The notes under the pieces were generated by a model. That model had not been told where the DNA came from and ran no database searches. It worked only from the letters and a program-made list of their open reading frames with translations. From contig JAETNY010000002.1 of NCBI GenBank assembly GCA_021771915.1, positions 141,825 through 205,824 on the forward strand: 64,000 bases of DNA, given 5' to 3'. Positions 1-40,813 of this stretch are shown here, piece by piece. A program made the position numbers and the translations under genes. This DNA comes from Bacillota bacterium (GTDB lineage: Bacteria > Bacillota > Dehalobacteriia > UBA4068 > UBA4997). Each line of letters begins with the position of its first letter. Position 1 is the first letter of the stretch.

Positions 1-495
1 TCACATAGTTATACCCACCCTTTTCAATAGCCGTAACCTGCTTGTCCACACCATTAAGCCGGATTTTAAGCTGTTTCTCCACTTCCTCACCTCCTAACCG
101 CTCTCTGATGAACGCCAGAGGGTCAATACTTGCCGGGTAGTGATACGTCCCCTTATGTACCTCCAAATGCAGGTGCTTGCCGGTGACATTGCCGGTAGCC
201 CCTCCACACCCAGCGCCGTCTTTTCGTCAACCCTCATGCCCGGCTTAACATAAACTGTACGCATATGCGCATAAAGTGTCAGATAACCGTCAGAGTGCTG
301 CACATAAACACAGTTGCCATAACTGCCGCTGCTGGTTACTTTCAGCACATAACCCTCGTAAAGCGGATAAATCAAACCGTCACCGCCATAGTTTGCAGAA
401 AGAGAATCCAAACCGCTATGGAAGCCGCACTTCCAATATTTGCCCTTACTGCCATATTTGGTGCCAAGCTTGTATTTATTAAACGGATAACGCAT
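1..495 (-). pseudogene. M23-family peptidase at the endolysin position. 3' end runs off the window; apparent -1 frameshift
   Basis: N-terminal part has GFHSGLD and GSYGNCVYVQHSDGYLTLYAHM motifs (HxxxD plus the LYAHL-type M23 signature). The catalytic GATGNVTGKHLHLEVHKG continues in the -1 frame after a C4/G4 run at 198-201. The corrected frame has no stop before position 1. Confidence 0.55.
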
Positions 496-813
496 TTATT
501 TGCCCTCCACATAAGACTGCGCATAGCTGTTGCCGGCCAGCATTAAACGCATTCTCTCCAGCGCCTTGTCCACCATTTCAGCAAACATCTTAAACGGAAC
601 CAGAACTGACAGCAGCGGAAACTTTTCCAGAAACTTATCATAAACCTGCCGCAGTTTCAGCTGACCGGTGCCGCTGCCCAGTTGCTTCTCGGCTTCAGTT
701 ACCACGCCCAGCAGCCATTCCTGCACATCGGTCAGGCGCACATAAAACAGGGCGACACACAGAGCCAGCAGCCCAACAACAATATACCAATTTTCAACAA
801 TGTAATTCATCAT
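496..813 (-). CDS. Phage holin, LL-H-like family
   Basis: N-terminal TM segment followed by EKQLGSGTGQLKLRQVYDKF, which resembles the LL-H holin signature (ATEKLLGTTTGSEKKQY). Sits directly upstream of the peptidase gene. Confidence 0.5.
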   Translation of the reverse strand: MMNYIVENWYIVVGLLALCVALFYVRLTDVQEWLLGVVTEAEKQLGSGTGQLKLRQVYDKFLEKFPLLSVLVPFKMFAEMVDKALERMRLMLAGNSYAQSYVEGK

Positions 814-1066
814 TTGATACCTCGCTTTCGTAATTAAACGGATTACCATCCGCGTCCAAGCCGTGCTTATTCCGACTTAGCTTCTCGGTAGTGCTTTTGG
901 CCGCATATGTAACCAGATAGCCAATGCAACCGGTAAATATGGTAGTGGTTACATCACTGACCGACTGCTTGTCCAAAGCAGCCAGCGCATAGGACAAGGC
1001 CGCAGCCAAAGTAGCCACCACCACCGCCCAAGCTGCCAGCTTTTTACTAAACTCCCACTTTCGCAT
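794..1066 (-). CDS. Small two-TM membrane protein (holin-like or lysis accessory)
   Basis: 90 aa with two hydrophobic helices (AAWAVVVATLAAALSYALAAL, TIFTGCIGYLVTYAA) inside the lysis cassette. Confidence 0.35.
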   Translation of the reverse strand: MRKWEFSKKLAAWAVVVATLAAALSYALAALDKQSVSDVTTTIFTGCIGYLVTYAAKSTTEKLSRNKHGLDADGNPFNYESEVSNDELHC

Positions 1067-1075
1067 AAACCCCTC

Positions 1076-1396
1076 CTACACAATGCCGATATGTGCCAAC
1101 AAAACGCCGATAATACCGCCAACCACTGCCAGCAAAGCCCCCTCAACCAACCGTTCCTGCAAACGCCCCGGCCTGTCCTGCTGATGTTCCTGCCAGTCTA
1201 TGAGTTTGTCCAGCTTATCATTAATGGTTTTGTCTCGCTCTTCTTGCACGGCTGCCAGCTGTTCCAGTTCCCTTAACCGGCTGAAAATGTCCTGATGGTC
1301 AGCATTTTTTCGTTTTTGGAAATCCTTAAACTGGTCTTCAAGCGTTTTCACTCGCTGCCCAAGATAGCAATTTCGCTCGCCACATTTTTCTTCCAC
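1076..1396 (-). CDS. XhlA-like protein (coiled-coil N-terminus, C-terminal TM)
   Basis: Coiled-coil region plus terminal TM helix ALLAVVGGIIGVLLAHIGIV. Position matches xhlA in the PBSX lysis cassette. Confidence 0.4.
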   Translation of the reverse strand: MEEKCGERNCYLGQRVKTLEDQFKDFQKRKNADHQDIFSRLRELEQLAAVQEERDKTINDKLDKLIDWQEHQQDRPGRLQERLVEGALLAVVGGIIGVLLAHIGIV

Positions 1397-1589
1397 ACAA
1401 ATCAGTCCTCCTTTTTATTTTTGCTCGCCGGATTTACTTTCTCGTCAATTTCTTTTTCCAGCTGCTTATAATCCAACTGTTTCACCTCCCAAGATTTCAT
1501 TTGCCTGCTCCGCGGTTAACCAGCGCGGCGCAAAATTTCTGACCTGATTTTCGGTAATTTTGCCCATTTGATATTGCAACTTAATAAAA

Positions 1590-2003
1590 TCAAACAATTT
1601 CGTCATCTCCTAACACCATAGCCATTGTTAGCATGGCACTCTCCATGGCCGCAAGCCTTTCCTCATATGTTGGTATAGCCGGCTGTTTAGGCATTGCCGC
1701 CCTGTCTGCTTCAATCTCCGTTTCATCTCTGGCAATAACCTGCTGGCCGTCCCATTTATAAAGAGGTATGCCGTCCATTGTAAACAGGCTGGGGTTTTCC
1801 TCACCCTCCGGCCAAAGCCTGAACTGATAGCCGCCCTGTTTGTTGATAACAATGCTGTTTTCTGTGGCTGGAGCAAAAGCGTCAGACCAGCCTTTAACAA
1901 TTCTGTTTTGTTCGTCCACTTCGACAAAGTGCTGATTGGAAACCGGTTCAAAAGCAATTTCCTGCTCCTCGATTATGGTTTCTGCAAAATCTAATTCATT
2001 CAT
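1590..2003 (-). CDS. Hypothetical protein after the tail fibre (XkdW-position)
   Basis: 137-aa acidic protein immediately downstream of the fibre gene. Confidence 0.3.
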   Translation of the reverse strand: MNELDFAETIIEEQEIAFEPVSNQHFVEVDEQNRIVKGWSDAFAPATENSIVINKQGGYQFRLWPEGEENPSLFTMDGIPLYKWDGQQVIARDETEIEADRAAMPKQPAIPTYEERLAAMESAMLTMAMVLGDDEIV

Positions 2004-2015
2004 AGGTTACCTCCT

Positions 2016-3035
2016 TTATAAATTGTTATCAATACATAAAAAAGTAGAAACATTAGTTGTATCAACCATTCCAGTCATTCCTGCTGTTAGTCCCGGCGTT
2101 TCATATGTAATATAACAACAATTTTCTGACAAAAACACACTTTCAGGTTGTTGTGTTGAAGAAATCGTACCAACTGCTTTAATTTGATTAGCAATTTGAA
2201 CTAACCTAAGACTTCCAGAGCTTAAAATTTTTACAGCAGGAATGGATTTGCGCTGTGTAGTTGGTAAAGTTACTGCTATCCTTGTAAAAATTTTATTACC
2301 GCTCGTTCCTATTTCAAAAGTTCCTATATGCCTGTTGTTACCACCACCTACTACGAACTGATACTCCTGGCATTTTGCCAACTCCACACTTTTGACAGGC
2401 GGTGGGTCATTTAATACCCAAACATCGCCCTCTTTGTGTGCAAGTGTTTGAACGGGACCAAGTTCGAGTTTGGCGGCTATTATTTCAGTAAAGTTTGCAG
2501 GCTGTGCAGAAATAGTTACTGACAATACACCATTTTCATTTCGCATAAATATAGCACCTTTTGAATATAGTGTCTGCAAAAACTGAATTGTGCCATTTGG
2601 TATAGTTCCAGTTATAGTTGTAAATTCGTTATTTTGAAACAAAAATGAAAGAGAAACAATTTTACCAAATAAATACTCCGATAAATTTTCTGATAAAGTC
2701 TGTCTATAATAACCATTAGCATTATCTAACGCTGTTAATGTAATGTACCCGTTGTGTAAGGTTACACTTTCCACACCACTCCATATTCTCCACCTGTCAA
2801 TCGTATAACCACTAGCTGTATACTCGCTTTGCCCGTTCCTGTTTACCGGGTTTCTGAAGTCTGCATTGATTAGCAGGTTGGGGTTGCTCGGCCAAACGCC
2901 CGTCCTCTTTATATGATAATCCGATAAAACTGCAAACGGCACCAACCCCGTTCCCTGCGCCGCGCAATCCGCCAAAAGGCAGTCGCTATCCGCCAACTGC
3001 CCGGCGGCAATTTTCGGCAAATCTTTCGTTTTCAT
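2016..3035 (-). CDS. Tail fibre / receptor-binding protein
   Basis: 339 aa. Motif NLLINADFRNPVNRNGQ is typical of Firmicute myophage fibre proteins. Follows the tail-collar fibre gene. Confidence 0.5.
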   Translation of the reverse strand: MKTKDLPKIAAGQLADSDCLLADCAAQGTGLVPFAVLSDYHIKRTGVWPSNPNLLINADFRNPVNRNGQSEYTASGYTIDRWRIWSGVESVTLHNGYITLTALDNANGYYRQTLSENLSEYLFGKIVSLSFLFQNNEFTTITGTIPNGTIQFLQTLYSKGAIFMRNENGVLSVTISAQPANFTEIIAAKLELGPVQTLAHKEGDVWVLNDPPPVKSVELAKCQEYQFVVGGGNNRHIGTFEIGTSGNKIFTRIAVTLPTTQRKSIPAVKILSSGSLRLVQIANQIKAVGTISSTQQPESVFLSENCCYITYETPGLTAGMTGMVDTTNVSTFLCIDNNL

Positions 3036-3048
3036 TAATTAATTCCTC

Positions 3049-3666
3049 CTATCTTAATCTGGCGTAAGCCAAAATCTGCTCGCCGGAATTGGTCGTAAGC
3101 TTATTGCCGTTATTATCACTAAGCGAGGCCACAACCTCGCCGCTGATAATCTCTCCTGCCAGTTTGTCTATGGCCGCCGCCAATTCTTCCGACATCACCC
3201 AAGCCCCTGCCGGGTAATTCAAATTTACCTCCGGGTCTGCGGACAAAGCAATGCTCACCGGATACCTGCGCACGTCCACCGCGCTGCCGTTAAATGCCGA
3301 AACATACTGCGGATAATCCCCCAAAGTGGCATAATAAAGCAAAATTTCCTCGCCGTCCGCCTCTCTGGCATATACCCCGAACTCATTCAGCAAAAAGCCC
3401 TCGGTAAGGCCGCCATTTAAGTCACTGCGGTACTCCACAATGAAACTGACCTGCTCATTCTCCACCTGCGGCACGGTTGAAGTCGCCAAAGCTACTGGCT
3501 GTACCAACTCCGTTATTTCTGACGGATTAACACCATCCGGCACTTTACCGCTGCCCACCATAACTTTAGTTATTTTCAGCTGGCTGCCAGTCAGCAGTTC
3601 AGCCAACAACCTCCAGCCCTGTTTGGTTATTGTAAAACCATAATCCATTTTCAGACCACCTCCCAT
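3049..3666 (-). CDS. Phage tail-collar fibre protein (DUF3751-like N-domain)
   Basis: N-terminus YGFTITKQGWRLLAELLTGSQLKITKVMVGSGK resembles tail-collar fibre proteins. Confidence 0.45.
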   Translation of the reverse strand: MGGGLKMDYGFTITKQGWRLLAELLTGSQLKITKVMVGSGKVPDGVNPSEITELVQPVALATSTVPQVENEQVSFIVEYRSDLNGGLTEGFLLNEFGVYAREADGEEILLYYATLGDYPQYVSAFNGSAVDVRRYPVSIALSADPEVNLNYPAGAWVMSEELAAAIDKLAGEIISGEVVASLSDNNGNKLTTNSGEQILAYARLR

Positions 3667-4400
3667 TTTCTATCTATAATATTGTTCATTGCACCAGCAC
3701 TGTGAATAACGGCTGTTAATTGTTGCTGCCATGGTATTGGCGACAATGCTGTTTCTGTCATATTCAAATTATCTGCTGCTGTATATACCAGCTGCTGCAT
3801 TGACTTCTCCCAAACCAACTGCGGCAAAACAGTGCTGCTCATACTGCCAGCTAACACTCCACCCAGATGCGCCTCCACCTGCTTTGGCGAGGACTGTAAA
3901 ACCGTTTCCAGCAGGATATGAGCCGGCCTGATTGGCCGCAAAATCGTCAAAATCTCACGCAACAGAACGCTCGGCTCAGGCACTCGGTCATGCTCCAGCA
4001 CAATACTAATCGTGTAATCCTGCACGTCAGCCCGGTAATTTCCAGCACCGCATATATTATCCAGCCAATTCCGCAGCCAGCGCAGAGTATAGGGCGGCTG
4101 CCGCTGCCAGGCTGCCTTGATGCGCGCCCGGCGCAGGCTTAAGCTTTCCGTGTCTTTAGCGAAAATGCCCAACTCACGCTCCCAAACCGCCAAACCACCG
4201 CCGTCCGCTTCCTCTAAAAACTGATTGCCCAGCACCCGGTTTAACCCCTGCCAAACCAGCCTGATTTCCGGCTCGTTGGCCGCGTTGATGGCCGCAAACT
4301 CCTCCACCTGTTGCAAAAAAGGCGGCAGATAATCCAACAAATGCCGCTCCGCGTTCTCCCGATTAAAGGCAATCGGCTCAAATTCAACCATTGACATCGC
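3651..4400 (-). CDS. XkdU-like (DUF2313/YmfQ family) baseplate protein
   Basis: Position after baseplate J. Likely start at MSMVEFEPIAF; the longer upstream start would overlap the J gene by 130 nt. Confidence 0.5.
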   Translation of the reverse strand, partial: AMSMVEFEPIAFNRENAERHLLDYLPPFLQQVEEFAAINAANEPEIRLVWQGLNRVLGNQFLEEADGGGLAVWERELGIFAKDTESLSLRRARIKAAWQRQPPYTLRWLRNWLDNICGAGNYRADVQDYTISIVLEHDRVPEPSVLLREILTILRPIRPAHILLETVLQSSPKQVEAHLGGVLAGSMSSTVLPQLVWEKSMQQLVYTAADNLNMTETALSPIPWQQQLTAVIHSAGAMNNIIDRKWEVV

Positions 4401-5580
4401 CCCTTTTCGGTATGCTGTCCGCTGCCAGCTGCAAATTGGCCTCCTGCCCGTTAATTCTGGTGCCGCCAATATCCGCCACCATAGCCGCGCAGCCGGCCAA
4501 AATACGGCTTTCAATCTGGGAAATACGCACAGTCAGAAAATCGCTTTCCGGCCAGCCGGCGGCCAACTCGGCAAAATATGCGTCCACCACCGCCAGAATG
4601 TAGCTTTGCGCGGCCGGCCAATCCCAGCCCGGCGCATAGGTCAGGTGCAATTCCACGTCCACCGGCTCCGCCTGCACCCCCACAACCTGCACCACATGGC
4701 CAATCGGCGCCAGCCCCAGCCCCTCGCCGGCGTTTTGCTCCGGGTCAATCAGCTCCTGCACCCGGTCAATTAATTCAGCCGTAGGAGCGCTGCCGTCGGC
4801 CGCCTGGATAACCAGCCTGACCACACCGCCCACCGTCAGCCATTTATCCGCCGCCGCATTGTAAACCGCTTGCAGCCAGCCGGCCACCTCTGCCGGCAGG
4901 CTGGCAATATTGGCCGCATACCACGATTGCACTGCCGCATTAGGGATAAACTTCGCCGGGCGCAGACCGCCGTTCCACACCGGGTAAACCTTAACGCCGC
5001 CCACCCCGGAGATTGCCAGAACCTGCGCCCGATAATCCGCCTGGTTGCCGCCGAAAGCCTGTGCCTGCAAGCTGTCCAGCACTCGCTGGCGAAAAGTTTC
5101 CGTTTCCTCCTCATCATCGCCGGGAATAAGCAGTTCCACCAACTCCGCCCGGGTCAGGCCGTTGATATAGTCAATAGGTATTAACTGCCCGGCATAGCTG
5201 TTAGCCAGACTGCCCGGCGTTTCACAAATCACCTGCCAGCCGTCCGCCAATTTGGTGGTTACTACAAAATTCAAATCTCGGCAGGAAAAACGGCTGCCAA
5301 CTGGAACTTCCACGTCAAACTCCGCCCGGAATACCGCCTCGCTGGCCGGCTTAGGCGTAAGACCTCGCTCCGCCGCTCTTTTAATCAGATACTCCCGGGG
5401 CGCGCTGGAAATGTAAGTGGCCTGCAAAACAAAATCCAGACCCAGATACAGCAGCGCCAACTCCGCCATGGCCGGCGCAATCCCGTCCCAGAGCATGGAG
5501 CCCTCGCGCTTGTCCATATCGGCCGGAAGTCTGGCAAGGGCGCTTTGCATTAACACCGAATAACTCTTATCCTCAAACAT
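4384..5580 (-). CDS. Baseplate J-like protein (XkdT-like)
   Basis: 398 aa. N-terminal region SVLMQSALARLPADMDKREGSMLWDGIAPAMAEL is typical of the baseplate J family. Conserved position between XkdS-like and XkdU-like genes. Confidence 0.65.
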   Translation of the reverse strand: MFEDKSYSVLMQSALARLPADMDKREGSMLWDGIAPAMAELALLYLGLDFVLQATYISSAPREYLIKRAAERGLTPKPASEAVFRAEFDVEVPVGSRFSCRDLNFVVTTKLADGWQVICETPGSLANSYAGQLIPIDYINGLTRAELVELLIPGDDEEETETFRQRVLDSLQAQAFGGNQADYRAQVLAISGVGGVKVYPVWNGGLRPAKFIPNAAVQSWYAANIASLPAEVAGWLQAVYNAAADKWLTVGGVVRLVIQAADGSAPTAELIDRVQELIDPEQNAGEGLGLAPIGHVVQVVGVQAEPVDVELHLTYAPGWDWPAAQSYILAVVDAYFAELAAGWPESDFLTVRISQIESRILAGCAAMVADIGGTRINGQEANLQLAADSIPKRGDVNG

Positions 5581-5996
5581 CAGAAATTAACCTCCTTTTG
5601 GGCAATCAGGCTGCCGAAAATAGTCTGCACTTCAAAGCTGACCTGCACCACGCCTTTGCGCAGCAAATTGAAATCAAAGCCGCCCACCCCGGTTATGCGG
5701 CTGTCGGCCAGCAGGGCTTCGGTGATGCGCCGCTCAATCTCCGGACAGACGAAAGAAACCGGCCGGCCGAACAAATCACCCAGCTCCACGCCATAATCGT
5801 AAGAATAAATCAGATAACGGTAACGCTCGGTGTTGATGATTTTGTAAACCGCCTGCCGCATGGCGGCCAGACCGTCCACCCGGCCACGCACCCGGTTCGC
5901 TCCCTCCGGCAAATTCAGCCCCCTGGTCAGCGTCGGCTGCTCCACAATCTGCAAATCGCTGTTCAGCAGCGGCGTTATGCTCGGTATCATTGCCAA
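5580..5996 (-). CDS. XkdS-like (DUF2634) baseplate protein
   Basis: 138 aa with motif YSYDYGVELGDLFGRP. Confidence 0.5.
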   Translation of the reverse strand: MAMIPSITPLLNSDLQIVEQPTLTRGLNLPEGANRVRGRVDGLAAMRQAVYKIINTERYRYLIYSYDYGVELGDLFGRPVSFVCPEIERRITEALLADSRITGVGGFDFNLLRKGVVQVSFEVQTIFGSLIAQKEVNF

Positions 5997-6469
5997 TCCC
6001 CTTTCACAATAGCTTCGGACACTCTGTCCAGCACCAGATATTTCTGGCCGCCCGGCCAGCGCAGCAGCAAAACCCTTTCGCCAACTTGCAGACCGTTATA
6101 AATCCGCAGCTGCTTGCGCCCCTTAATCGCGTGCTTATGCGTGGTGTTCAGATTGCCTTCGTCGCATGAGCCGCCGCCGGTGTAGGTGTCGCTTATGGCG
6201 TGGGTGTGCCGGCCGTTCAGGAAACTGTCGTTCTCGGTGTGGGTGCAGATTTCCACGTCAACCAGAATGTCCTGCACCGCGCTCGTCAATTCCAGCTGCT
6301 CCGCCTCCAGCAACAGCTTCTGCTCGGCCATAATTTGCAGCGGCTCCACCGCCATAACCGTACCATAGCAAAATGCCGCCGGTTTGCCGGCTGCCACCGC
6401 CTCCACCGCGGCGCGTTTCATTACCTGTAAAAATTCCGTATAATCCGCCATTTTTTCACCTCCTGCCAA
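5987..6469 (-). CDS. XkdR-position baseplate protein with a His/Cys-rich insertion
   Basis: 160 aa. The central segment ICTHTENDSFLNGRHTHAISDTYTGGGSCDEGNLNTTHKH is rich in His and Cys. Confidence 0.35.
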   Translation of the reverse strand: MAGGEKMADYTEFLQVMKRAAVEAVAAGKPAAFCYGTVMAVEPLQIMAEQKLLLEAEQLELTSAVQDILVDVEICTHTENDSFLNGRHTHAISDTYTGGGSCDEGNLNTTHKHAIKGRKQLRIYNGLQVGERVLLLRWPGGQKYLVLDRVSEAIVKGDWQ

Positions 6470-7444
6470 TCAGGCAATAAATTCGCCGCCGCGCAGCGTT
6501 AAATCCATAAAACGCTCGCTCTCCCGAAACGTGTGGCAAACATTTTCCACCAGCATATAAGTGTTGGCAATAATATCGCCCAAATCCAGCGCCACGCCCA
6601 GCAGGCAGCCGGCGCGCACTCTCGCGTCCCCCAGAGCGTTCTTAATCTTCAGCCGCCGCGTTTTGCTGTTATACAATTTCAACAGCGCGTCCGCTTTGGC
6701 CTGACCATTTTCCTCGGCCTGCACAGTGTCGAAATATTGCAGCAACCCCCACTGGTTAATATGCTCGCCGTCTTTAGCAATATAGCTTTCCCATTTGCCG
6801 CTTTCCCGGTTGGGATATGACAATTTGACCTGATTATACGTCTGCTCGTCAATGCTGCTGGTATAGTCAAAATCCCCGGCTGCCGACGCGTTGATGAGTA
6901 TATCCAGCCGCATACTGGCAATGTTTTTCAGCGTCAGGCTGCCAAAATCGTCATAGAGAACGAACATCTGCCCCTTGTGCGTCAGCTCCAAATCCAGCGC
7001 CGTTTCAATCATATCCAGCAGCGTCACATTTCCCTCGCTGCGGAACGGTATCACGTATGAGGTCGGCTCAATCTCGCCCAAATGCAGCTTTTTATCAGCG
7101 GCAATCAGCTGCACCACCTCCGCCGCCGTGCTGTTTTTATATGTCAGAATATCCTTGTTTTTCAGGTACCTAATCTGGTCGTATGCCGTGCACTCAATCG
7201 CCCCGGCCTTATCCCGGCGCTTAACAAAGATATATCCAAAAAACAGCGGCTTGTCGTCCACCTGCAATGTCACTGATGAACCCTCGGCAAAACCACCGAT
7301 TTCGCCCATGGCTTCGTCTTTAAGCACCGTAAATTTCAGCGTCCCGGGGGAACCGCGCCTGCTGGTGGTAAGCGTGACGCCCTCCGCCGTCGGCGGAAAA
7401 AAACTTAAACCTTTCTCATTGGTAATCATCAATGTTACTGCCAC
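6470..7444 (-). CDS. XkdQ-like / late control D-like tail protein
   Basis: 324 aa, conserved position after the tape measure. Confidence 0.5.
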   Translation of the reverse strand: MAVTLMITNEKGLSFFPPTAEGVTLTTSRRGSPGTLKFTVLKDEAMGEIGGFAEGSSVTLQVDDKPLFFGYIFVKRRDKAGAIECTAYDQIRYLKNKDILTYKNSTAAEVVQLIAADKKLHLGEIEPTSYVIPFRSEGNVTLLDMIETALDLELTHKGQMFVLYDDFGSLTLKNIASMRLDILINASAAGDFDYTSSIDEQTYNQVKLSYPNRESGKWESYIAKDGEHINQWGLLQYFDTVQAEENGQAKADALLKLYNSKTRRLKIKNALGDARVRAGCLLGVALDLGDIIANTYMLVENVCHTFRESERFMDLTLRGGEFIA

Positions 7445-11357: not shown

Positions 11358-11419
11358 CTTAAATCAACCCCTCTCTGCCTACATATTACAACCTCCAGTC
11401 AATTCCGTCAAGCCTAAAA

Positions 11420-11619: not shown

Positions 11620-12045
11620 TTTTGCCTCGGCCACCTTTTCATCAAAGGAAATATTAAAACCCTGGAATTTTTGCACAAAATTCGCCAAATCATTATACTC
11701 GCCAGGGTCGTCCACCATGGCCAGCAGCAAATCCTCCGGCGTAGCCACGCCATAGCTGTCTTGCAACTCCTTGTCGAACAAATCCGGCTCCACCACGGAG
11801 GCCGCAATCATCTTGCGGATATATTCGCTGCTTTTCAGTTTAGGGCGGAACATACCCGGCTTGCCATGCACCGCCACATCTTTGGTGCTGTCCTCGCGAA
11901 TAACCTCGTTTTGGGCAGAACTGATGTGCTTAAACTCCCAAAGCAGCGGCACGCCTGCCTCATCGCAAAGCGACTTGGTGGCCGCAAAGAAACCGTTCTC
12001 CTGTACTTTTTTGTTCGCTTTCATAAATTTTGCAAATTTAGACAT
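11614..12045 (-). CDS. Tail assembly chaperone, XkdN-like
   Basis: 143 aa between the tube and tape-measure genes. Ends in a slippery site. Confidence 0.6.
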   Translation of the reverse strand: MSKFAKFMKANKKVQENGFFAATKSLCDEAGVPLLWEFKHISSAQNEVIREDSTKDVAVHGKPGMFRPKLKSSEYIRKMIAASVVEPDLFDKELQDSYGVATPEDLLLAMVDDPGEYNDLANFVQKFQGFNISFDEKVAEAKN

Positions 12046-12091
12046 CTTAAATCTTCCTTTCTGTTTTATAAATTATTTTAGAAACAAACCT

Positions 12092-12574
12092 TTAATTAGT
12101 GAGAAAACCCTCCAAATCCTTAAAGGACTCCGGCATTTTAAAATCCTCAAAGGTGAAGTCCATATCCTCGTCCAAATACTCGCCGTCCGCATCAAACTTG
12201 GCCAAAATGCCGCCGTCAATGTTGCAGTCCATTAAAATCATGGTCTGCCGGCCAGCCGCCGACGTTGGGTCTTCATTGGAAATCTGAATTTCAAAATAAA
12301 TATCCTCGCCGGTTTCCTTATACTGCAACATCATCTGGCGAAAAACGGACGTGTTATAATGGAAAGTCGCCGAGCCGGTGCCTTTCCAGCCGGAAGCCTT
12401 ATTACCTTTACCGGTTTTGCCCAAAATGGGAATTTCCGTCTTGTTTTTCTCAAATTTTGCCTCCAGATTAATCGCCTGCATAAAATTATAACGGCGCGTG
12501 CCAATAGTTACAAAACACTCTGCCAGGCTGGCAAAAACCGCGTCCTTGCCGCGCATAACCACATTACCGTTCAT
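12092..12574 (-). CDS. Tail tube protein (XkdM-like)
   Basis: 160 aa immediately after the sheath gene. Confidence 0.65.
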   Translation of the reverse strand: MNGNVVMRGKDAVFASLAECFVTIGTRRYNFMQAINLEAKFEKNKTEIPILGKTGKGNKASGWKGTGSATFHYNTSVFRQMMLQYKETGEDIYFEIQISNEDPTSAAGRQTMILMDCNIDGGILAKFDADGEYLDEDMDFTFEDFKMPESFKDLEGFLTN

Positions 12575-12588
12575 TTATTTAACCTCCT

Positions 12589-13896
12589 TTAAGCCACCGT
12601 AACGGTCATATAAAGCTTGCTCATCGCGTTTACCACCGTCACCAAATCTTTTACAACCACCGACTTTTTGCTGCTGCCCGGCTCCACCGTCACGTCAGCG
12701 TCAGAAAAATTTTCAATCGCCCGAATTTCTTGCAACTGTTCATGGTGTTTAACAATATCTGACCAAAGAGATATGCGCCCGGCCGCATCGTTGGGCACCA
12801 CCCCCAGATATTTGGTGTTGAACAAAACCGCAATATCATTGCCAATCTGGTCAATCACGCGCACCGTCTGGTTTTCCTGAAAAATCTCGCCCTGCGTATC
12901 GGAAGTTGTCACCATACTGTTAATATCCGCCAAAACCCGAATATCCGCGCCCACCTTATGCAGGGTGAACTCGCCAGCCTTAATCGCCTTTTTCAATTCG
13001 TTTTGCGTGTAATCCGCCGCCACAGTGAACTCACCGTCATATTTGCGGTTCTGGCAGCTTCTGTTAACCTCGCAGCCGGCAGAAGCCCCGGTCACCCAAT
13101 AAACCAGACTGGCCTGGCTCCAACCCTCGTCCAGAACGTCATTTTTGACGTTAATCGTCCCCGGATAATCCGCCGCCAGATTATGCAGCACCAGCTGAAA
13201 CTTTATGCCCATTTCATCGCGCAGCCGCTTCACAAAAGCCGCGTAAAGCCCCTTGGTTACTGCGTCCTCAACCACCACGCCCATGGTATTATAGGTATAG
13301 GCCTCGATTTTATCCAGATAATTCTGGTGGCTCAAGCCGCTAACCTCGCCGTTTGTACCGCCGGTCAGGTTCATTCCGGCCGTGGCTGTCAGCGTAGCCG
13401 CCGACTTAAACTTCACAAAATCATTATCCTGCAAATCCGCCGCAGCAGCCGCCGTCTGCTCGTCCACCAGCGCCACGCCCAGATAAGTCTGCACGTCAAA
13501 CAAGTTTTCATTATCCGCATTAACCTGCACCACAATCCGCAGGTCATTGCCCCTCACGCCGCAATAGCGCGCCTCGGCCAAATCGTTGGCCGCCTTTTGG
13601 CCGCCGGAAGTCAGCTTATAGGCATAAAGAGTTTGCGCGTTTAAAAACAAATCGCGCAGGCCTTTCAGTTTCTCATGCGTATAATCATAACCAAAAATCC
13701 GCAAACTGTTCTTCTGAAAATCACCGTTAGTCACTTCAAAAATCTCGCCGTCCACGCCCCAGTCCAAATCCAGCGGCATGGTGGCAATGCCGCGCTCCGA
13801 AAGCGCTGCGTTAGCCGCCTGCGCCGAAACAAAATTGATATACGCGCCCGGCAATTCCTTGTTCTGTACCAAAAAGGTACCGCCGCCCAAAGCCAT
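12589..13896 (-). CDS. Contractile tail sheath protein (XkdK-like)
   Basis: 435 aa. N-terminus GGGTFLVQNKELPGAYINF has the sheath-family start motif. Confidence 0.8.
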   Translation of the reverse strand: MALGGGTFLVQNKELPGAYINFVSAQAANAALSERGIATMPLDLDWGVDGEIFEVTNGDFQKNSLRIFGYDYTHEKLKGLRDLFLNAQTLYAYKLTSGGQKAANDLAEARYCGVRGNDLRIVVQVNADNENLFDVQTYLGVALVDEQTAAAAADLQDNDFVKFKSAATLTATAGMNLTGGTNGEVSGLSHQNYLDKIEAYTYNTMGVVVEDAVTKGLYAAFVKRLRDEMGIKFQLVLHNLAADYPGTINVKNDVLDEGWSQASLVYWVTGASAGCEVNRSCQNRKYDGEFTVAADYTQNELKKAIKAGEFTLHKVGADIRVLADINSMVTTSDTQGEIFQENQTVRVIDQIGNDIAVLFNTKYLGVVPNDAAGRISLWSDIVKHHEQLQEIRAIENFSDADVTVEPGSSKKSVVVKDLVTVVNAMSKLYMTVTVA

Positions 13897-13897
13897 A

Positions 13898-14095
13898 TTA
13901 CTTCACCCGTCCTTCCATATAATCTGTAATCATTCTCTCAACCGCCGCAATCGTGTACTGCTTATCAGATTGCAAAAGCGCGTTGATAATATCTCGCCTG
14001 TTCTGGAAACGCGCAGAAGTCAGCAGCTGCTCCTTATTAAACAAACCGCCTGCTTTTTCCGTTGTTTCCGCCTTATCCATTTTCTTAACTGCCAT
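13898..14095 (-). CDS. Small hypothetical protein
   Basis: 65-aa ORF tightly packed before the sheath gene. Confidence 0.3.
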   Translation of the reverse strand: MAVKKMDKAETTEKAGGLFNKEQLLTSARFQNRRDIINALLQSDKQYTIAAVERMITDYMEGRVK

Positions 14096-14105
14096 TCACA
14101 TCACC

Positions 14106-14531
14106 TTATCCTTTCACGCTCACATTTTCCGTCAGCTCGCTCATCGCCGGCGTATTGTCCAGACGATAAACGAACATATCATAATTAACAAAAAAATGCA
14201 GCACATTGTCAATAACCTCATAGCGCATTTGCGTGCCGCGCGTCAAATCGCCGGCCACGCTAATCCATTCCAAACACCAGTAAAGCCGCTCGGCCACCGC
14301 ATTACATTCCTCTCTGGCGCGGTTTATATCAGCCGGGAAATATTGCAGGCAAAACTGATTGCTCCGAAAATACCGCCTGTTCAGAAAAAGCCGGCTGGTC
14401 GGATTTATGCAGGCAATAAAAAAGCAAGGCTCCTGCAAGCCCTGCGCGACGTCTTCCGCATAAATGGCATAATCATCGCCAAACTCCGTGTCTAAGGCCT
14501 GGCTGATTGCCGTAATTATTGAGTTTATCAC
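14106..14531 (-). CDS. XkdJ-position tail completion/terminator-like protein
   Basis: 141 aa between the gp10-like and sheath genes. Overlaps its upstream neighbour by 4 nt. Confidence 0.35.
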   Translation of the reverse strand: MINSIITAISQALDTEFGDDYAIYAEDVAQGLQEPCFFIACINPTSRLFLNRRYFRSNQFCLQYFPADINRAREECNAVAERLYWCLEWISVAGDLTRGTQMRYEVIDNVLHFFVNYDMFVYRLDNTPAMSELTENVSVKG

Positions 14532-15106
14532 TTAAAACACTCCCCCAGAAACTGCCTGATTTTGGCTTGAAGTAGTCCCGGCGCTATCTTCTGAATTTCC
14601 TGCTCGGAAATGGTCAGCATAAAATGCCCCGGCGCCCAACCCCTGCCGTTAGCGGTGCGGTGACCGTATTCCACATAGGACGCATATTCCACCGGGTTTT
14701 CTATTGTAATAACATATTCGTTATCACGTTTTTCAATCTGTAAATTGTTGACATAATCCCTCACATTTTCTGTTTTCCCCTTAAACAAAGCCGCATACAT
14801 GGCGCTTCTGTCGTTTTCTGCCGTCCAACCGCGGCGCAGCGTATCGCCCATTTTGCCGCTGGGATTTATGCGTTTTTTGTAAACATCGCCCTTTTTGTGA
14901 TATTTAGAATTACGTTTAGCCATCACCTCCACTTCATGCGCACAATCGCCCACCGGCGTGCGCTTAATCACCAATGCCAGCAAACGCGCGGCCAATTCTT
15001 TAGCGCAGGCCTCCACAAACTTCTGCGCTTCTTTGTCCTGCATTTTTTCCAGCTGCTTTTGCAGCTTCTTCATATCACCAAATGAAAAACTGCCCATTTT
15101 GGCCAT
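14528..15106 (-). CDS. HK97 gp10-family neck / tail-attachment protein (XkdI-like)
   Basis: C-terminal motif NPVEYASYVEYGHRTANGRGWAPGHFM matches the HK97 gp10-family signature. Confidence 0.55.
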   Translation of the reverse strand: MAKMGSFSFGDMKKLQKQLEKMQDKEAQKFVEACAKELAARLLALVIKRTPVGDCAHEVEVMAKRNSKYHKKGDVYKKRINPSGKMGDTLRRGWTAENDRSAMYAALFKGKTENVRDYVNNLQIEKRDNEYVITIENPVEYASYVEYGHRTANGRGWAPGHFMLTISEQEIQKIAPGLLQAKIRQFLGECFK

Positions 15107-15918
15107 ATCAAGCCCACCCCCTCCACAAACTCAAAACAACCTCCTGATGTGTGCCATAAACCGCCATACTCAATAACCGTACAAACCCTGGTATATAACC
15201 GTTCAATCGCCCGTCTGACCCTGTCCATTTTTCTCACCACCTCATCTTTCGATAACAGGAATTTTTTCCACTTTTTCGTCCCCCTGTTCTGCCCATTTTA
15301 ACGCTGGCACTTTCTTCACCACCTGCCGCAGTCCCTCCGGCACTTCGGGCAGATTGCAGTCGTTTTTAATGCTGCTGCCAACCTTTTCCCAAACCATAGC
15401 CAGCAAACAAAATTTCCAAACTCTGCCGGGTGCGGATTTTCAGCGTCTCCAGCCGGGAAATGGCCCATTTCAAATCGCTATACACCGAATCGCGCAGCGT
15501 ATTGGAATAACGGCGCACGCATAGCCCGTTACTTTCCGGATAGATCAGCAGGCAATAAATCAGGTTAAGTGCGGCAGTTTTGTTTTGCTTTTCTTGCTGG
15601 CGCGGCTGCCCTTGCATACGCGATAGCGTTTATGGGTCTGCCAAAAATCCGCGTAATTCCGGCCCACAACTCCCGGCTCTGTCCAGAATATCTTTAGCCG
15701 CCATTAAACGCGCCGATTCACTACGGGCTTTTAACCTCTTTCATACTGTTTTTCAGAGCAAGGGGGATACTCTGCCATAAATTCATCGCTCTTTTTCCAG
15801 TTGCAAATTGTTGCTTCTGTAACGTGCAGGCTGCCGGCAATTTCCTTTGATTAAATCTTTGCAATTATACTATACCACAAACTTAAAGCGAACGTCAACG
15901 AACACCAGCGAACAACTT
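15107..15918 (-). other. Decayed spacer where terminase, portal and capsid genes would sit
   Basis: Only an 83-aa ORF (15366-15617, weak similarity to the ArpU C-terminus) and frame-broken fragments lie between the late activator and the first tail gene. Confidence 0.35.
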
Positions 15919-16347
15919 TTATTTTGCCAGATGTCTTTTACAAATCATTCTCACCCCAGCCGCCGTATTTCTGCGGCCGATAATCTCCGCCACCTCCTGC
16001 CATGTCAGGCAATGCAAAAAGCGCAAACGGAAAATCAGGCGCGTTTGTTCATCATCTATGCTGTTTATGTAAGCCTCAACCTTTGCCCTCTCCTGCTCTG
16101 CGGCCTGTTTAAGCTCCTCAATCAGCTGCTGCATATCCACAATTTCCGCCGTAAAATCACCAAGCTTATCCTTAACCCCCGGCGCAGCCGGCATACCGGT
16201 CGGCTTTTGAGCGCCGGGACAGACGGCGCTTTGCGGGCCGGCCAGAATATCCTCCGCCCGATATATGCGCTGCAACAAATTGTAATACTTAGATAATTCC
16301 TGCAAAGTCCATTCGCCTAGCGGTTTGTTTAACAATTCATTGTTCAT
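15919..16347 (-). CDS. ArpU-family phage late-gene transcriptional activator
   Basis: TGMPAAPGVKDKLGDFTAEIVDMQQ resembles the ArpU core. C-terminal sigma-region-4-like segment LTWQEVAEIIGRRNTAAGVRMICKRHL. Confidence 0.5.
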   Translation of the reverse strand: MNNELLNKPLGEWTLQELSKYYNLLQRIYRAEDILAGPQSAVCPGAQKPTGMPAAPGVKDKLGDFTAEIVDMQQLIEELKQAAEQERAKVEAYINSIDDEQTRLIFRLRFLHCLTWQEVAEIIGRRNTAAGVRMICKRHLAK

Positions 16348-16350
16348 TTT

Positions 16351-16533
16351 TCAATCCTCCAAACATTTTATCTCAACTTCAAGTCGTGGCTGCTGGCTGT
16401 AATACTTAACCAAACTGACCGTAACTATATCCGCATCGTCACGATAGGCCGCCTGATTTAAGCTGTCCGCCACCACTTTAATTATGTTATCCGCGTCCGG
16501 CTTTTTCACCGGCCTGATTAAACCTGCCTCCAT
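16351..16533 (-). CDS. Small hypothetical phage protein
   Basis: 60-aa ORF in the operon. Confidence 0.25.
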   Translation of the reverse strand: MEAGLIRPVKKPDADNIIKVVADSLNQAAYRDDADIVTVSLVKYYSQQPRLEVEIKCLED

Positions 16534-16852
16534 AGCCGCCTGCCGCTGGCAGGTATGCTGTAATAGGCGCTGATATGCATTGTCAACGGTTCTTTATTTG
16601 GAAACCTACGGCTGGGGCATTGCCGCAGGTATTCAGTACGAATAAGGTTTTCATATACAACTGTTTTGTCCAGCATGTATGTTCGACCGTTTTGCCAACA
16701 GAAATGTAGCCGCTCTTTACCTCGTTTTCTGGCGGAAAAAATCTACTATTTCTTGTGGTTTCACCTGAAGAATTTCCAGAATTTTATACGCCGTTTCCAA
16801 TTTAATAGGCGTTTCATCTGAAATAATTCTAAAAAACTGTTTATTACAATCC

Positions 16853-17464
16853 TCAAAATGGTAAATCATCAAAGGCAGACTTAAGACTTTGCTGCCCAAC
16901 CGGCTCTGCAAATACTGCCGGTTCTTTCCGATCATACTCTTTAAGCCGCCCAAACAACCTCTCATGCTTCAGCCACATTTCCAGATAACCGCTTTTAAGC
17001 CGACGCGTTATCTTCAAACCCTGCCGCAAGGCTGGAGTTTCCCCGGCCCTCTGGCAGGGGCATCTTATGCCCAAATCCACATAATGACCATAAAATAATG
17101 CCTCCGGCCGAGCTTGCACCAGAACCTGCTTAAAACCATGACACAGCGGACATTTGCCGCCAAAATCCAAACCCTGCCGCCGCTGCCGCTCCTCCAGAAT
17201 ATTATCACAAATTTGCCGCAGTTCGCCGGCCTTGGGTAATCTCGCATAAACGCGTGTGTCATTAGCTATGTATTCGGTTAGCGCCTGGTCTAACAATTCA
17301 GCATTATAAACGCCCAAAACTTTCAGCCATTCATTGACCAAATCGCTCATTTCCTCTTTGGTGCGCTTACCGCCCAGGCCAACCGTTTCGCATCTCTGCA
17401 AAAGCCTGCCAATATCACTGATTACCGCCAAATCTCTGCACCTCCTTACGCAACGTCCGCTCAA
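16853..17464 (-). CDS. Cys-rich hypothetical protein (putative zinc-binding) in the replication module
   Basis: Motifs CPLCHG and CPCQ. Likely true start at MSDLVNEWL. Confidence 0.3.
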   Translation of the reverse strand: MSGRCVRRCRDLAVISDIGRLLQRCETVGLGGKRTKEEMSDLVNEWLKVLGVYNAELLDQALTEYIANDTRVYARLPKAGELRQICDNILEERQRRQGLDFGGKCPLCHGFKQVLVQARPEALFYGHYVDLGIRCPCQRAGETPALRQGLKITRRLKSGYLEMWLKHERLFGRLKEYDRKEPAVFAEPVGQQSLKSAFDDLPF

Positions 17465-18394
17465 TTATAGTGCTTTTGGCATTGTACTGCCGCCGCTCGC
17501 ATCTCTTTTGGCTTCAGCCATTTGCTCAATCTGCGCCCAGCGGTCAACATTACTCTCCGGCGCCGGCTTTTGCGCCTTTGGCTTATAGCCCAGCCCCCAG
17601 CCGTTTCTGCTGCATTTGCGCACTACCAAATTCCAGTCTTTCCAGTGGTTTTTATTGCCGTTGCTTTGCGCGCTCTCGTCAATGTAAGTAATGCAGCGCT
17701 GCACTTCCTCCTCACCAAAATCTGCCAGCAGGCGCGCATATTGCTCATCAGTCAGCAGAACCCAGCCATATTCGCCATGTTTATGTTTGATTGGTTTTTC
17801 CTTGGTGAGAGCGGCCGGCGGCAAGCCGGGCACACTCTCTTTTTTACTATACTTTTCTTTACTTTTCTTTACTTTTCTTTGTGAATTAATCGACTGATTT
17901 ACTTCATTAATCGGCTGATTTACCGGGTTAATTGGTTGATTATGTGTTTTCAGGTAATAGCAATGCTTCACGGATAACTCGGCCATATCCGCGTCCGTCA
18001 GCAGCCAGATGCTGCCGTCTATGTCAACGGTCTTCCGGGTCACAGTCGCGCTATAAAATGTGCGCTGCGCCCGTTTGGAGGAGATAATCTCACGTTGGAA
18101 AAGGTCGTCGCTAAATAGTCCACACGCCACCAACGCCGTAATAACCTCCGCAACCGTTTCAGGGTTTGGGCAGTACTTGCCCTGCAAATCACCTAATACA
18201 TACCAAATAATCGCGTCCTTATCGCTGTAATCAATGTAATAGCCCTTATCCCGATAAAGCAGGCTTAACAGCGATATATAGACCATTGGCGCCAAATAAC
18301 CATACTGCATTTTAGGCCGCCGCAGTTTTGGGTCGTTCAGCAAATCTACCGAAAACGAGAAGTAATCTAGCCCCTTTTTGCCTGGAGCCGCCAT
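17465..18394 (-). CDS. Phage replisome organiser / replication initiator (Lin1244/DUF4373-like N-terminus)
   Basis: N-terminus KKGLDYFSFSVDLLNDPKLRR is the DUF4373 hallmark. The central linker encodes VNQPIN x3 from internal DNA repeats. Confidence 0.6.
   Translation of the reverse strand: MAAPGKKGLDYFSFSVDLLNDPKLRRPKMQYGYLAPMVYISLLSLLYRDKGYYIDYSDKDAIIWYVLGDLQGKYCPNPETVAEVITALVACGLFSDDLFQREIISSKRAQRTFYSATVTRKTVDIDGSIWLLTDADMAELSVKHCYYLKTHNQPINPVNQPINEVNQSINSQRKVKKSKEKYSKKESVPGLPPAALTKEKPIKHKHGEYGWVLLTDEQYARLLADFGEEEVQRCITYIDESAQSNGNKNHWKDWNLVVRKCSRNGWGLGYKPKAQKPAPESNVDRWAQIEQMAEAKRDASGGSTMPKAL
17851..17943. repeat. Iteron-like tandem repeats inside the replisome organiser gene (candidate phage ori)
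   Basis: ACTTTTCTTT x3 perfect tandem copies at 17851-17880, then three ~20-bp copies of TTAATYGRYTGATTTAC at 17884-17943. Confidence 0.5.
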
Positions 18395-18736
18395 TTTATT
18401 CCCTCTCTTTGGTGCGTTTCTTTAACATATATGTTACTGTTATGATAACACACAACCTATCGGACATAACAGGACGTCTTTTAATGAGCGCAGTCAAAGC
18501 CGCTCCGCGAACTAATCCATTTGTCGACAAGTTGTCGATAGGCAAATGGAATCCTTACTCATTGCCTTTCAGGTCAATGTTAAAAACATTTCTGATATAG
18601 GCAGCAATATCATAGCTAGACACATTTTTAACGATGTTCAGCAGCATATCCCTCTGAATTTTCGCCTGCAAAAGCTCCTCATACAAGTCTGCACTAATTG
18701 TAATCATTAAATCTTTATCCATTATTCAGACCTCCC

Positions 18737-40800: not shown

Positions 40801-40813
40801 TGAATGGTAAAAT

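Follow-up and report, generated by a model that had tools for sequence, protein, structure and literature searches.

The window, a stretch of 64,000 nucleotides analysed as a whole, contains a tRNA-Met-linked prophage that runs on the minus strand from beyond its left edge (<1) to about position 22,600. Read from the tRNA end, the element consists of a dead integrase, a CI-S24 repressor, a NinB/Orf-like gene, a replisome organiser with iterons, a split RusA gene, a small activator and a 0.8-kb gap and, beyond the gap, 23 genes of PBSX type for neck, tail and lysis. The sequence-only reading had described an activator at the ArpU position, a spacer of about 0.8 kb and then a gp10-like gene followed by contractile-tail and lysis genes, and this order is seen on the minus strand; its placement of the element's end at 18400 is not upheld, given that the element extends up to a tRNA-Met gene (22538-22613, minus strand, ARAGORN) that adjoins the integrase remnant. 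This tRNA is the presumed integration site, at which further elements are inserted in other strains; a search for an att repeat at the far end of the element found none. A contig that is 100% identical to the window (L013) reaches host genes (MatE, PadR, MFS and purL) just past the left edge.

The tyrosine integrase pseudogene (21500-22410, plus strand; Pfam Phage_integrase) retains only its C-terminal catalytic domain (229 aa in L001), its N-terminal region being interrupted by stops in all strains; the window copy has an additional TGG-to-TGA stop at 22121. It is followed by an HSDR_N/PD-(D/E)XK endonuclease-like accessory gene (20105-21262, plus strand; Pfam HSDR_N, 3.8e-17; phrog_4225 endonuclease, 5e-117), a candidate moron with a weak PADLOC match, and by an intact CI-like repressor (19361-20086, plus strand) with HTH_3 and Peptidase_S24 domains, the latter of LexA-like autocleavage type. 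All 8 loci covering the repressor carry an intact copy, and most strains have kept both it and the nuclease-like gene undamaged. On the minus strand, the interval 19285-19346 holds a PR-like early promoter (19346-19318; 11 of 12 in the promoter scan) and a junction left by the deletion of 707 bp, which took out cro and a 97-aa ORF. This segment, Cro-like HTH gene included, is present in L001, L004 and L186 and absent from the window, L005, L011, L185, L187 and L190.

The early genes on the minus strand encode a NinB/Orf-like recombination mediator (18737-19258; phrog_72, 1.1e-15; Pfam NinB below cut-off) and a replisome organiser or replication initiator (17465-18394; Pfam Lin1244_N, 4.6e-15; phrog_2562, 2e-37), which contains iterons (17885-17941, 2.7 copies of a 21-bp repeat) and is frameshifted in L187. 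The RusA resolvase gene (16351-16676, minus strand) is a pseudogene split into a 52-aa ORF, weakly matching RusA positions 24-65, and a 60-aa ORF matching positions 77-124 of 124, a state that is identical in all strains. Next to it, a small sigma-70 region-4-like protein (15919-16347, minus strand; phrog_36 transcriptional regulator, 1.6e-13; sigma70-ECF superfamily, 1.4e-6), intact in 14 of 14 loci, is the putative late transcription activator. The dead integrase, the retained CI repressor and NinB, and the replisome organiser with iterons were all correctly recognised in the sequence-only reading, but its ArpU label for the activator is not borne out: the protein has no match to NCBIfam phage_arpU, and its Sigma70_r4 matches are below threshold.

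Neck, tail and lysis genes

All genes of this module lie on the minus strand. It begins with an intact HK97-gp10-like neck or tail-completion protein (14528-15106; Pfam, 2.4e-12; phrog_5), which matches relatives end to end and is intact in 14 of 14 loci, and a tail terminator (14106-14531; Pfam Phage_tail_terminator_8, 1.3e-39). A conserved 65-aa ORF (13898-14095; phrog_966), present in 150 related loci, separates the terminator from the contractile sheath (12589-13896; four sheath Pfam domains), and the tail tube follows (12092-12574; Pfam DUF2001, 2e-54). The XkdN-type tail assembly chaperone (11420-12045; Pfam Phage_TAC_5, 4e-40) consists of an ORF at 11614-12045 with a slippery A_AAA_AAC at 11623-11617 and, by frame analysis, a 65-codon extension in the -1 frame. 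Between it and the tape measure lies a 169-aa ORF with a Gly-zipper-like segment (10848-11357; phrog_17658), which has counterparts in only 8 related loci and one allele of which weakly matches PH_gly_zipper. The 928-aa tape measure protein (7974-10760; phrog_1068, 4e-96) matches that of L058 end to end; other strains have alleles that reach only 83% identity or are cut short by a restriction-modification (R-M) cassette.

The baseplate genes (3651-7977; Pfam and PHROG matches) are all intact in the window and comprise XkdP-like (7435-7977), YQBQ/XkdQ (6470-7444), DUF2577/XkdR (5987-6451), sheath initiator/XkdS (5580-5990), Baseplate J/XkdT (4384-5580) and Mu gp48-like/XkdU (3651-4391) genes, the last aligning with relatives over residues 1-238 of 246. 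The fibre region (1466-3648) encodes a tail-fibre N-terminal protein (3049-3648; phrog_7037, 2.8e-48), a 339-aa putative receptor-binding protein (2016-3035) and a 137-aa ORF (1590-2003), the latter two yielding no family match, and an XkdX-like 43-aa ORF (1466-1597) with weak Phage_XkdX and phrog_134 matches. Some 20 tail genes are thus intact in the window copy: those from gp10 through the XkdT-like gene match relatives end to end, and the genes after these, as far as the XhlA-like ORF, are uninterrupted and of full length; multiple frameshifts, which would have spoken against a preserved tail, do not occur.

The lysis accessory genes (496-1396) encode an XhlA-like protein (1076-1396; phrog_937 hemolysin/XhlA, 3.7e-9), a 90-aa membrane protein that is a holin candidate (794-1066) and a 104-aa membrane protein (496-810), both with TM-like segments. 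The same lysis cassette is found in a different, apparently complete prophage of the species (L193, L200). An M23 peptidase gene had been proposed as the end of the cluster; the gene is present (1-495, ORF 94-495, passing the left window edge by about 80 bp), but it is a pseudogene, in which a one-nucleotide deletion (G5 to G4) in the G run at 199-202 puts the KHLHLEVH segment, with its HxH motif, out of frame. The intact 191-aa allele of L194, L197, L198, L199 and L193 reads GAGGGGGCT, whereas the window allele reads GAGGGGCT, and the Pfam M23 match drops from 2-90 to 2-72 of 96.

The head-module scar

The element contains no terminase, portal, scaffold or capsid ORF, and tblastn of relatives' head proteins against the whole 64 kb returns only short remnants, all of them inside the spacer between activator and neck. 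The left-edge flank, as seen in the identical contig that enters host genes, likewise holds no head genes, and for these two regions the proposal that a head-morphogenesis module is missing thus stands. The spacer itself had been taken for anonymous decayed DNA; the gap of about 0.8 kb is real, but its 812 non-coding base pairs (15107-15918, minus strand) are a scar of the head module. Blastx and tblastn against relatives place in it, on the minus strand and in the original order, an HTH ORF at the TerS position (15847-15672), the TerL N-terminus (about 15724-15450, frameshifted near 15585), a Mu-F fragment (15462-15402), a connector-1 fragment (15409-15290) and connector-2 fragments (15258-15111), and Pfam Terminase_3 matches an ORF inside the spacer (4.8e-7). 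An intact relative, L207, holds TerS-TerL-portal-MuF-scaffold-MCP-connectors-gp10 at the matching place and is 93% identical in nucleotides to the window from gp10 to the chaperone; the scar aligns with it in five collinear blocks of 89-97% identity. The comparison shows that a head module of TerS, TerL, SPP1-type portal, Mu-F, scaffold, capsid and two connectors has been lost in four or more separate deletions, with a net loss of about 7.1 kb. The promoter scan places a late-promoter-like site within the scar (15898-15869, minus strand); on the coding (minus) strand it detects nothing resembling a terminator from the late activator to the first neck gene.

Variation among strains

At least 21 contigs, assembled independently by several assemblers from 15 or more metagenome samples, contain the scar; 12 other full-length copies are 99.0-99.75% identical to that of the window, and a thirteenth (L005) is identical. 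Strains sharing the scar have had their tail genes knocked out in different ways. The sheath of L185 carries a stop at Y202; in L001, L002, L014, L015, L197, L203 and L204 a type II R-M cassette replaces five tail genes, from the C-terminal part of the tape measure to the N-terminal part of XkdS; L196 and L003 have a serine-recombinase insertion in DUF2577 together with BpJ and gp48 stops; and L197 has a stop in XhlA. In L194, L198, L199 and L201 every gene from tape measure to lysin is intact. Several strains can do without the tail module.

Isolated SNPs are near-neutral in the early genes (8 synonymous, 21 non-synonymous; omega 0.72, not significant), while omega is about 0.32 in the tail genes (39 and 43; p 5e-7) and about 0.11 in the lysis genes (11 and 4; p 4e-5), and the tail and lysis pattern differs from that of the early genes (Fisher p 0.03). 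This departure would fit selection on both modules after head loss. It is also explicable by imports from functional phages, because strains differ by at most 1% in the scar but by 14-17% in their tape-measure and M23 alleles. Related phages recombine very extensively with the element: tracts of the sheath, tube, tape-measure and lysin genes have been exchanged in mosaic fashion with at least two other lineages, and the divergent sheath and tube tracts come from a source other than the L207 lineage. About 19 of 101 related loci are compact, lack a head module and belong to the same tail lineage, their repressor and activator genes lying immediately upstream. These compact tail-only relatives come from other Lachnospiraceae.

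Probable decay or possible domestication

PBSX of Bacillus subtilis is itself defective, with SOS-type repressor logic, and retains terminase, portal and capsid genes, packaging host DNA in small heads. The element resembles PBSX and the skin element (YqbQ-type) in its tail and lysis families and their order, sharing the XkdN-type chaperone with its frameshift, tape measure, XkdP, XkdQ (YQBQ), XkdR, XkdS, XkdT, XkdU-like, XkdX, XhlA and small membrane proteins. It differs in having lost the terminase, portal and capsid genes, in an M23 peptidase as lysin, frameshifted here, and in a sigma-r4-like activator that lacks a phage_arpU match. With the R-type diffocin of Clostridioides difficile and the R-type pyocins it has in common a contractile-tail cluster without capsid genes and an upstream repressor and small activator. 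Those bacteriocins are described as SOS-induced and released by lysis (PMC6088184; PMC10538166). Their loci are streamlined and conserved, with demonstrated killing activity, whereas the present element still contains a replication module, integrase debris, remnants of head genes and a neck protein; it has been inactivated in several strains, and its lysin is broken in this copy. The myovirus-type 'tailocin-R' prophages of solventogenic clostridia yield mainly head-less contracted tails on induction, are ordered as regulatory, head, tail and lysis modules, and retain the capsid module in Gram-positive hosts (PMC10538166), which in our element is physically deleted. As far as they are described where cited (Bobay et al. 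2014, in PMC10538166), cryptic prophages under deletional decay show no essential difference from the element: a dead integrase, pseudogenes and deletions, lesions that vary by strain, other mobile genes inserted in the remnant, and partial purifying-selection signatures.

We therefore favour, with a probability of roughly 0.7, a defective, immobile prophage of PBSX/skin-element tail type that lies by a tRNA-Met gene in a gut Clostridia-like host, where it is eroding in place. On DNA damage the CI-like repressor would cleave itself and free the PR-like promoter, the early operon would supply the sigma-r4-like activator, and this would fire the late promoter at about 15898-15869; transcripts would run on across the scar to reach the tail and lysis genes, so that head-less contractile tails could assemble. 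Such an element would be able neither to package DNA nor to excise, and in the window strain particles would have to be released without a working endolysin. That the tail genes are still open may be due partly to recent and patchy decay and partly to overwriting by selected alleles through homologous recombination with phages of the same host.

It is possible, if rather unlikely, that the element is instead an incipient or functional R-type tailocin, whose SOS-inducible circuit, tail and lysis genes are kept for the killing of competing strains by released head-less tails; the window would then be a variant recently disabled by the lysin frameshift, and the knocked-out strains losers of a variable trait. 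The complete, undamaged tail set of the window and a distal half that is fully intact in L194, L198 and L199, 191-aa lysin included, fit this idea, but sheath, tape measure, baseplate, XhlA and lysin bear independent lesions across strains. Omega (about 0.3 in tail and 0.1 in lysis genes, against 0.7 in early genes) speaks for a tailocin, subject to the phage imports considered above; the presence of the lysis cassette in another prophage speaks against one. A replication module and a neck protein, for which a tailocin has no need, persist beside the features that would serve one, namely the uniformly intact repressor, activator and gp10 genes and the early and late promoter-like sites with no terminator-like site from activator to neck; the compact head-less relatives also favour a tailocin.

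We consider it improbable that the element serves as a tail-gene reservoir or helper-dependent element, maintained by putative recombination with, or complementation of, same-host phages or for accessory genes (CI immunity, the HSDR_N-like nuclease). The exchanged tracts, the lysis cassette found in a different prophage, the repressor and nuclease-like gene intact in most strains, and a site that draws further elements and an R-M cassette would be in keeping with this, yet in L188 a stop interrupts the HSDR_N gene, and in the window copy PADLOC recognises no known defence system. Absence of the head genes through mis-assembly or a collapsed region can be practically dismissed, since the same junctions recur across the independent assemblies and one contig is 100% identical over 12 kb.

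Of the two outcomes that the sequence-only reading had offered, a prophage in mid-decay agrees with the head deletions, the damaged integrase, RusA, cro and M23 genes and the independent tail knock-outs; a domesticated bacteriocin is less well supported, given a tail that is dispensable in several strains and a lysin that is broken here. Compact tail-only loci do exist elsewhere, and this tail type has therefore plausibly been domesticated elsewhere. The element described here is a new example of a decaying cryptic prophage in an uncultured or poorly described lineage of gut Clostridia.

Gene content and regulatory signals

The element is best explained as a defective prophage in multi-step decay, the tail module of which happens to survive intact in the window strain (probability about 0.7). 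Gene calls were named by Pfam, PHROG, and NCBIfam scans, which confirm the gene order proposed in the sequence-only reading. From high to low coordinates, a tRNA-Met (22538–22613) adjoins a plus-strand tyrosine-integrase remnant (~21500–22410), followed by an HSDR_N/PD-(D/E)XK endonuclease-like gene (20105–21262), a CI-like repressor with HTH and S24 domains (19361–20086), a NinB/Orf-like protein (18737–19258), a Lin1244_N-type replisome organizer (17465–18394) with 21-bp iterons at 17885–17941, a 192-aa ORF, a RusA gene split into ORFs of 52 and 60 aa (16351–16676), and a 142-aa sigma-70 region-4-like regulator (15919–16347). An 812-bp gap (15107–15918) separates this regulator from the neck, tail, and lysis genes, which lie on the minus strand and comprise an HK97-gp10-like neck gene, a tail terminator, a 65-aa ORF, sheath, tube, an XkdN-type chaperone, a 169-aa ORF, tape measure, baseplate genes of the XkdP, XkdQ (YQBQ), XkdR (DUF2577), XkdS (sheath initiator), XkdT (Baseplate J), and XkdU (Mu gp48-like) types, two fiber ORFs, a 137-aa ORF, XkdX-like and XhlA-like ORFs, two small membrane proteins, and an M23 peptidase. 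The Xkd-type families (XkdN chaperone, XkdQ/YQBQ, XkdR/DUF2577, XkdS, XkdT, XkdU, XkdX, and XhlA) stand in PBSX order, and Pfam, PHROG, and alignments together identify a complete contractile-tail set of terminator, sheath, tube, chaperone, tape measure, baseplate, and fiber in the window. The proteins from gp10 through the XkdT-like baseplate protein align end to end with those of relatives; the multiple tail-gene frameshifts that the sequence-only reading had set against its own proposal are absent from the window copy, in which these proteins are full length. At the stop of the chaperone gene there is a slippery A_AAA_AAC (11623–11617) and a 65-codon −1 extension.

The 142-aa regulator had been named ArpU, a name that we do not retain because it matches no ArpU model, including NCBIfam phage_arpU. 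Its matches are a sub-threshold Sigma70_r4 (Pfam), the sigma70-ECF superfamily below cut-off (NCBIfam), and PHROG 36, and its size and position fit a putative late activator. A strong PR-like promoter (19346–19318, 11/12 matches) nearly abuts the NinB-like gene following deletion of a cro-like gene, and a promoter-like site with an extended −10 (15898–15869) is present a short distance downstream of the activator. From the late activator to gp10, the coding (minus) strand has no terminator-like site. Given these retained promoter-like sites and the lack of a terminator-like site, it is plausible that the circuit of repressor, activator, and late operon would still work.

A megablast search of window positions 1–18400 against GenBank phages returned no match, so the element has no named close relative; the best match to the sheath in a search of genome contigs is 84% identical, and the host is a putative gut Clostridia/Lachnospiraceae-like bacterium. 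The 169-aa ORF (10848–11357), which is located after the chaperone extension and ahead of the tape measure and contains a Gly-zipper-like segment, GGAIAGALLMGAPGAMLGG, occurs in 8 of 160 related loci, is highly variable among strains (dN 0.064 versus the related locus L003), and may be a moron. A PADLOC scan of the accessory genes of the window copy identified no known defense system. Elsewhere in the window, positions 36000–50500 have a G+C content of 25–35%, versus ~48% in the remainder, contain numerous ORFs on the minus strand, and are a candidate horizontally acquired island; positions 54719–62110 hold a single minus-strand ORF of 2,463 aa.

The head-module scar

When the head proteins of relatives (TerL, portal, Mu-F, scaffold, capsid, and connector) were used as tblastn queries against the 64-kb window, short pieces were found in the 812-bp gap only. 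Beyond the left edge, metagenome contig L013, which matches the window at 100% identity for 12 kb, contains no head genes but the last 80 bp of the lysin frame, two small minus-strand genes, and a tRNA-Leu, with the host genes MatE, PadR, MFS, and purL further out. The earlier statement that head genes are missing is therefore confirmed for the window and for the DNA just past its left edge. The gap itself had been described as a decayed spacer of ~0.8 kb; it is decayed, and is more precisely a head-module scar with collinear remnants. An ORF within it matches Pfam Terminase_3 (E 4.8e-7), and blastx of the gap against ORFs from 160 related loci reveals remnants in the original order: an HTH ORF in the TerS position (15847–15672), TerL (residues ~13–83 at ~15724–15450, with a frameshift near 15585), Mu-F, and the two connectors located ahead of gp10 in relatives.

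The closest intact relative, L207, has a sheath in the same 90% cluster as that of the window and is 93% identical to it in nucleotide sequence from gp10 to the chaperone. Ahead of gp10, L207 encodes TerS, TerL, an SPP1-type portal, Mu-F, two small ORFs, a scaffold, a 374-aa capsid candidate, and two connectors. DNA alignment identifies five collinear blocks, pairing window 15613–15582 with L207 745–776 (TerL, 97%), 15462–15415 with 3686–3733 (Mu-F, 94%), 15389–15319 with 7675–7745 (connector 1, 92%), 15242–15158 with 7973–8056 (connector 1/2 boundary, 89%), and 15165 onward with 8288 onward (connector 2 end, then gp10, 93%). The interval spans 7,543 bp in L207 versus 448 bp in the window, and the five blocks imply at least four deletions that removed ~7.1 kb. 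This rules out a single clean deletion of the head module, which was lost by stepwise erosion rather than by excision of one module.

Exact-protein look-ups recovered contigs with the scar and the same host flanks from at least 15 independent metagenome samples. Identity across the scar is 99.0–99.75% in the 12 other full-length copies, and a 13th (L005) is identical to the window. The head loss is real rather than an assembly artifact, and it predates the divergence of the strains.

Strain-specific lesions, recombination, and selection

Pseudogenes and deletions affect several modules of the element and vary among strains, the mark of a defective prophage. The integrase adjoining tRNA-Met, the presumed att site, is inactivated by a degraded N-terminus and a stop; the N-terminal degradation is found in all strains, and the window copy has an additional TGG-to-TGA stop at 22121. 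A search of the distal end of the element, extended with L013, for a second att copy matching the 3′ end of tRNA-Met gave chance-level matches only. In L188, L191, and L192 a second integrative element lies between tRNA-Met and the old integrase remnant (L188:11176–17578, L191:11176–14106, L192:11176–13550) and encodes a 395-aa integrase, a YafQ/ParE-type toxin, an AAA_25/DnaG-Zn-ribbon primase, and a GP3_package-like small terminase; a phage satellite is one possible identity for this element. A different prophage occupies the tRNA-Met site in L183 and L184.

Among the early genes, the integrase of L187 is shortened further and its replisome organizer carries a 10-bp frameshift, and L188 has a stop in the HSDR_N gene. 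A 707-bp deletion (junction at window 19285–19289, counterpart L001:5115–5822) has removed a Cro-like HTH gene and a 97-aa ORF from the window, L005, L011, L185, L187, and L190; both are kept in L001, L004, L186, and L189, and the deletion is specific to the sub-lineage of the window. The tail genes are interrupted in several strains: codon 202 of the L185 sheath gene is a stop (TAT to TAG); DUF2577 of L196 and L003 contains an inserted serine-recombinase element, and both strains also have stops in Baseplate J and gp48; and in L001, L002, L014, L015, L197, L203, and L204 a type II R-M cassette (L014:1652–4842, L001:16451–17463, L203:15231–16840) replaces the tape measure from ~residue 628, XkdP, XkdQ, XkdR, and the start of XkdS (window ~9235–5816). 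The cassette encodes an HTH controller, a 291-aa putative endonuclease, an N6_N4 methyltransferase, and a D12-class methyltransferase, and the prophage remnant serves as a landing pad for such defense genes. L197 also has a stop in XhlA. In L194, L198, L199, and L201, all genes from the tape measure to the lysin are open.

The M23 endolysin of the lysis cassette, needed for release, is broken in the window and intact in some other strains, where 191-aa alleles (reading GAG GGG GCT ACC GGC ... AAG CAC CTG CAT) rule out a frameshift common to all strains. The window allele has one G fewer in a homopolymer at 199–202 (G5 to G4), which places the KHLHLEVH (HxH) metal site and a C-terminal wall-binding-like domain out of frame, and the Pfam match shrinks from positions 2–90 to 2–72 of 96. 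The G4 state also occurs on a second, divergent M23 allele (L014, L017), so the G-run may be a recurrent slippage hotspot or the lesion may have been moved by recombination.

Strain-to-strain differences are at most 1% in the neutral scar versus 14–17% between tape-measure and M23 alleles, a divergence so far above that of the scar that homologous recombination with related phages must have brought these tracts in. The sheath and tube tracts acquired in this way do not resemble L207, which implies more than one donor lineage. The lysis cassette (p137-XkdX-XhlA-holin-p104-M23) is 92–100% identical to that of a different prophage of the same species (L193:1–11147, L200:1–11144), which has DUF7841, DUF6711, Gp58, and collagen-like tail genes; the common cassette reflects module exchange between co-resident phages.

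Pairwise dN/dS against a 95% variant is 0.04 for the sheath and 0.01 for the tube, and dS is patchy (0 in gp10 and YQBQ, 0.1–0.2 in sheath and tube). Because this patchiness points to imported tracts, we dropped pairwise per-gene dN/dS as the sole test of selection and counted in its place isolated SNPs pooled across 42 loci. In this count, which imports from very close relatives can still enter, the early genes have 8 synonymous and 21 non-synonymous changes (omega 0.72, not significantly different from neutrality), the tail genes 39 and 43 (omega 0.32, p 5e-7 versus neutrality), and the lysis genes 11 and 4 (omega 0.11, p 4e-5 versus neutrality); the contrast between early genes and tail plus lysis genes has a Fisher p of 0.03.

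Decay, domestication, and compact tail-only loci

Among 101 related loci for which 9 kb or more is available ahead of the sheath gene, homologs of the head module were detected in 80 and none in 21, 19 of which have neither connector homologs nor head genes upstream. Most of the 19 carry a small DUF1492-, sigma-r4-, or RinA-like activator directly before the tail terminator and, beside it, a divergent repressor (XRE HTH plus ImmA/IrrE M78 peptidase, or HTH-S24); gp10 is also undetected in 17, and ordinary host genes lie further upstream in L025 and others. These loci, from other Lachnospiraceae and Clostridia genomes (L045:7449–20300, L041:7601–20000, L062:7200–20700, L077:7754–19400, L025:6743–17215, and ~14 more of L034–L144), comprise the terminator, sheath through XkdU, and one fiber gene, after which the cluster ends (~11 kb in all); replication genes are absent, and the DNA retrieved contains no obvious lysis cassette. 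They resemble streamlined, tail-only members of the same tail lineage, and it is possible that they are undescribed R-type tailocin loci. Head-less versions of this tail thus recur in Lachnospiraceae; the compact loci bear on the tail lineage and carry no evidence about the window element itself.

The sequence-only reading had offered two identities, a tailocin-like element or a prophage in mid-decay. The multi-step lesions support the latter. The former draws on a contractile-tail set that is complete in the window and on head and packaging genes reduced to short remnants, as in an R-type tailocin, but tailocin function is unlikely in the window copy because its lysin is dead. For the lineage as a whole, an incipient tailocin is possible although improbable: the low omega of tail and lysis genes is the best evidence for domestication, but it is not distinguishable from the effect of imports from very close functional relatives, and it occurs alongside several independent knock-outs and heavy recombination among strains. 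We regard as similarly doubtful a broader proposal that would make the lineage a natural intermediate in tailocin evolution, with stepwise head loss followed by selection on tail and lysis genes in situ, fully intact strains of the L194 type releasing SOS-inducible head-less killing particles, and the ~19 compact repressor–activator–tail loci of Lachnospiraceae as the streamlined end state. We therefore favor the defective prophage in multi-step decay.

PBSX-like defective phages, cryptic prophages, and R-type tailocins are already known (PMC6088184, PMC10538166), and the element is a new example within these well-known kinds. It differs from PBSX-like defective phages, which have head genes and small heads that package host DNA, in the deletion of its head module. 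Our literature search found nothing relevant on tailocins in Lachnospiraceae or on tailocins linked to ArpU.

Taken singly, the locus is an ordinary defective prophage. Its value is in the documented series of intact relative, common multi-deletion scar, strain-specific lesions, and streamlined tail-only loci, which shows the dismantling of a contractile-tail phage in a gut commensal, and how hard decay and domestication are to separate where a remnant is continually renewed by recombination with live phages. Should the intact variants prove active, they would rank among the earliest R-type tailocins reported from gut Lachnospiraceae-like bacteria; if the broader proposal of a tailocin-evolution intermediate were true, it would point to a class of R-type tailocins that is widespread in gut Lachnospiraceae and so far undescribed.
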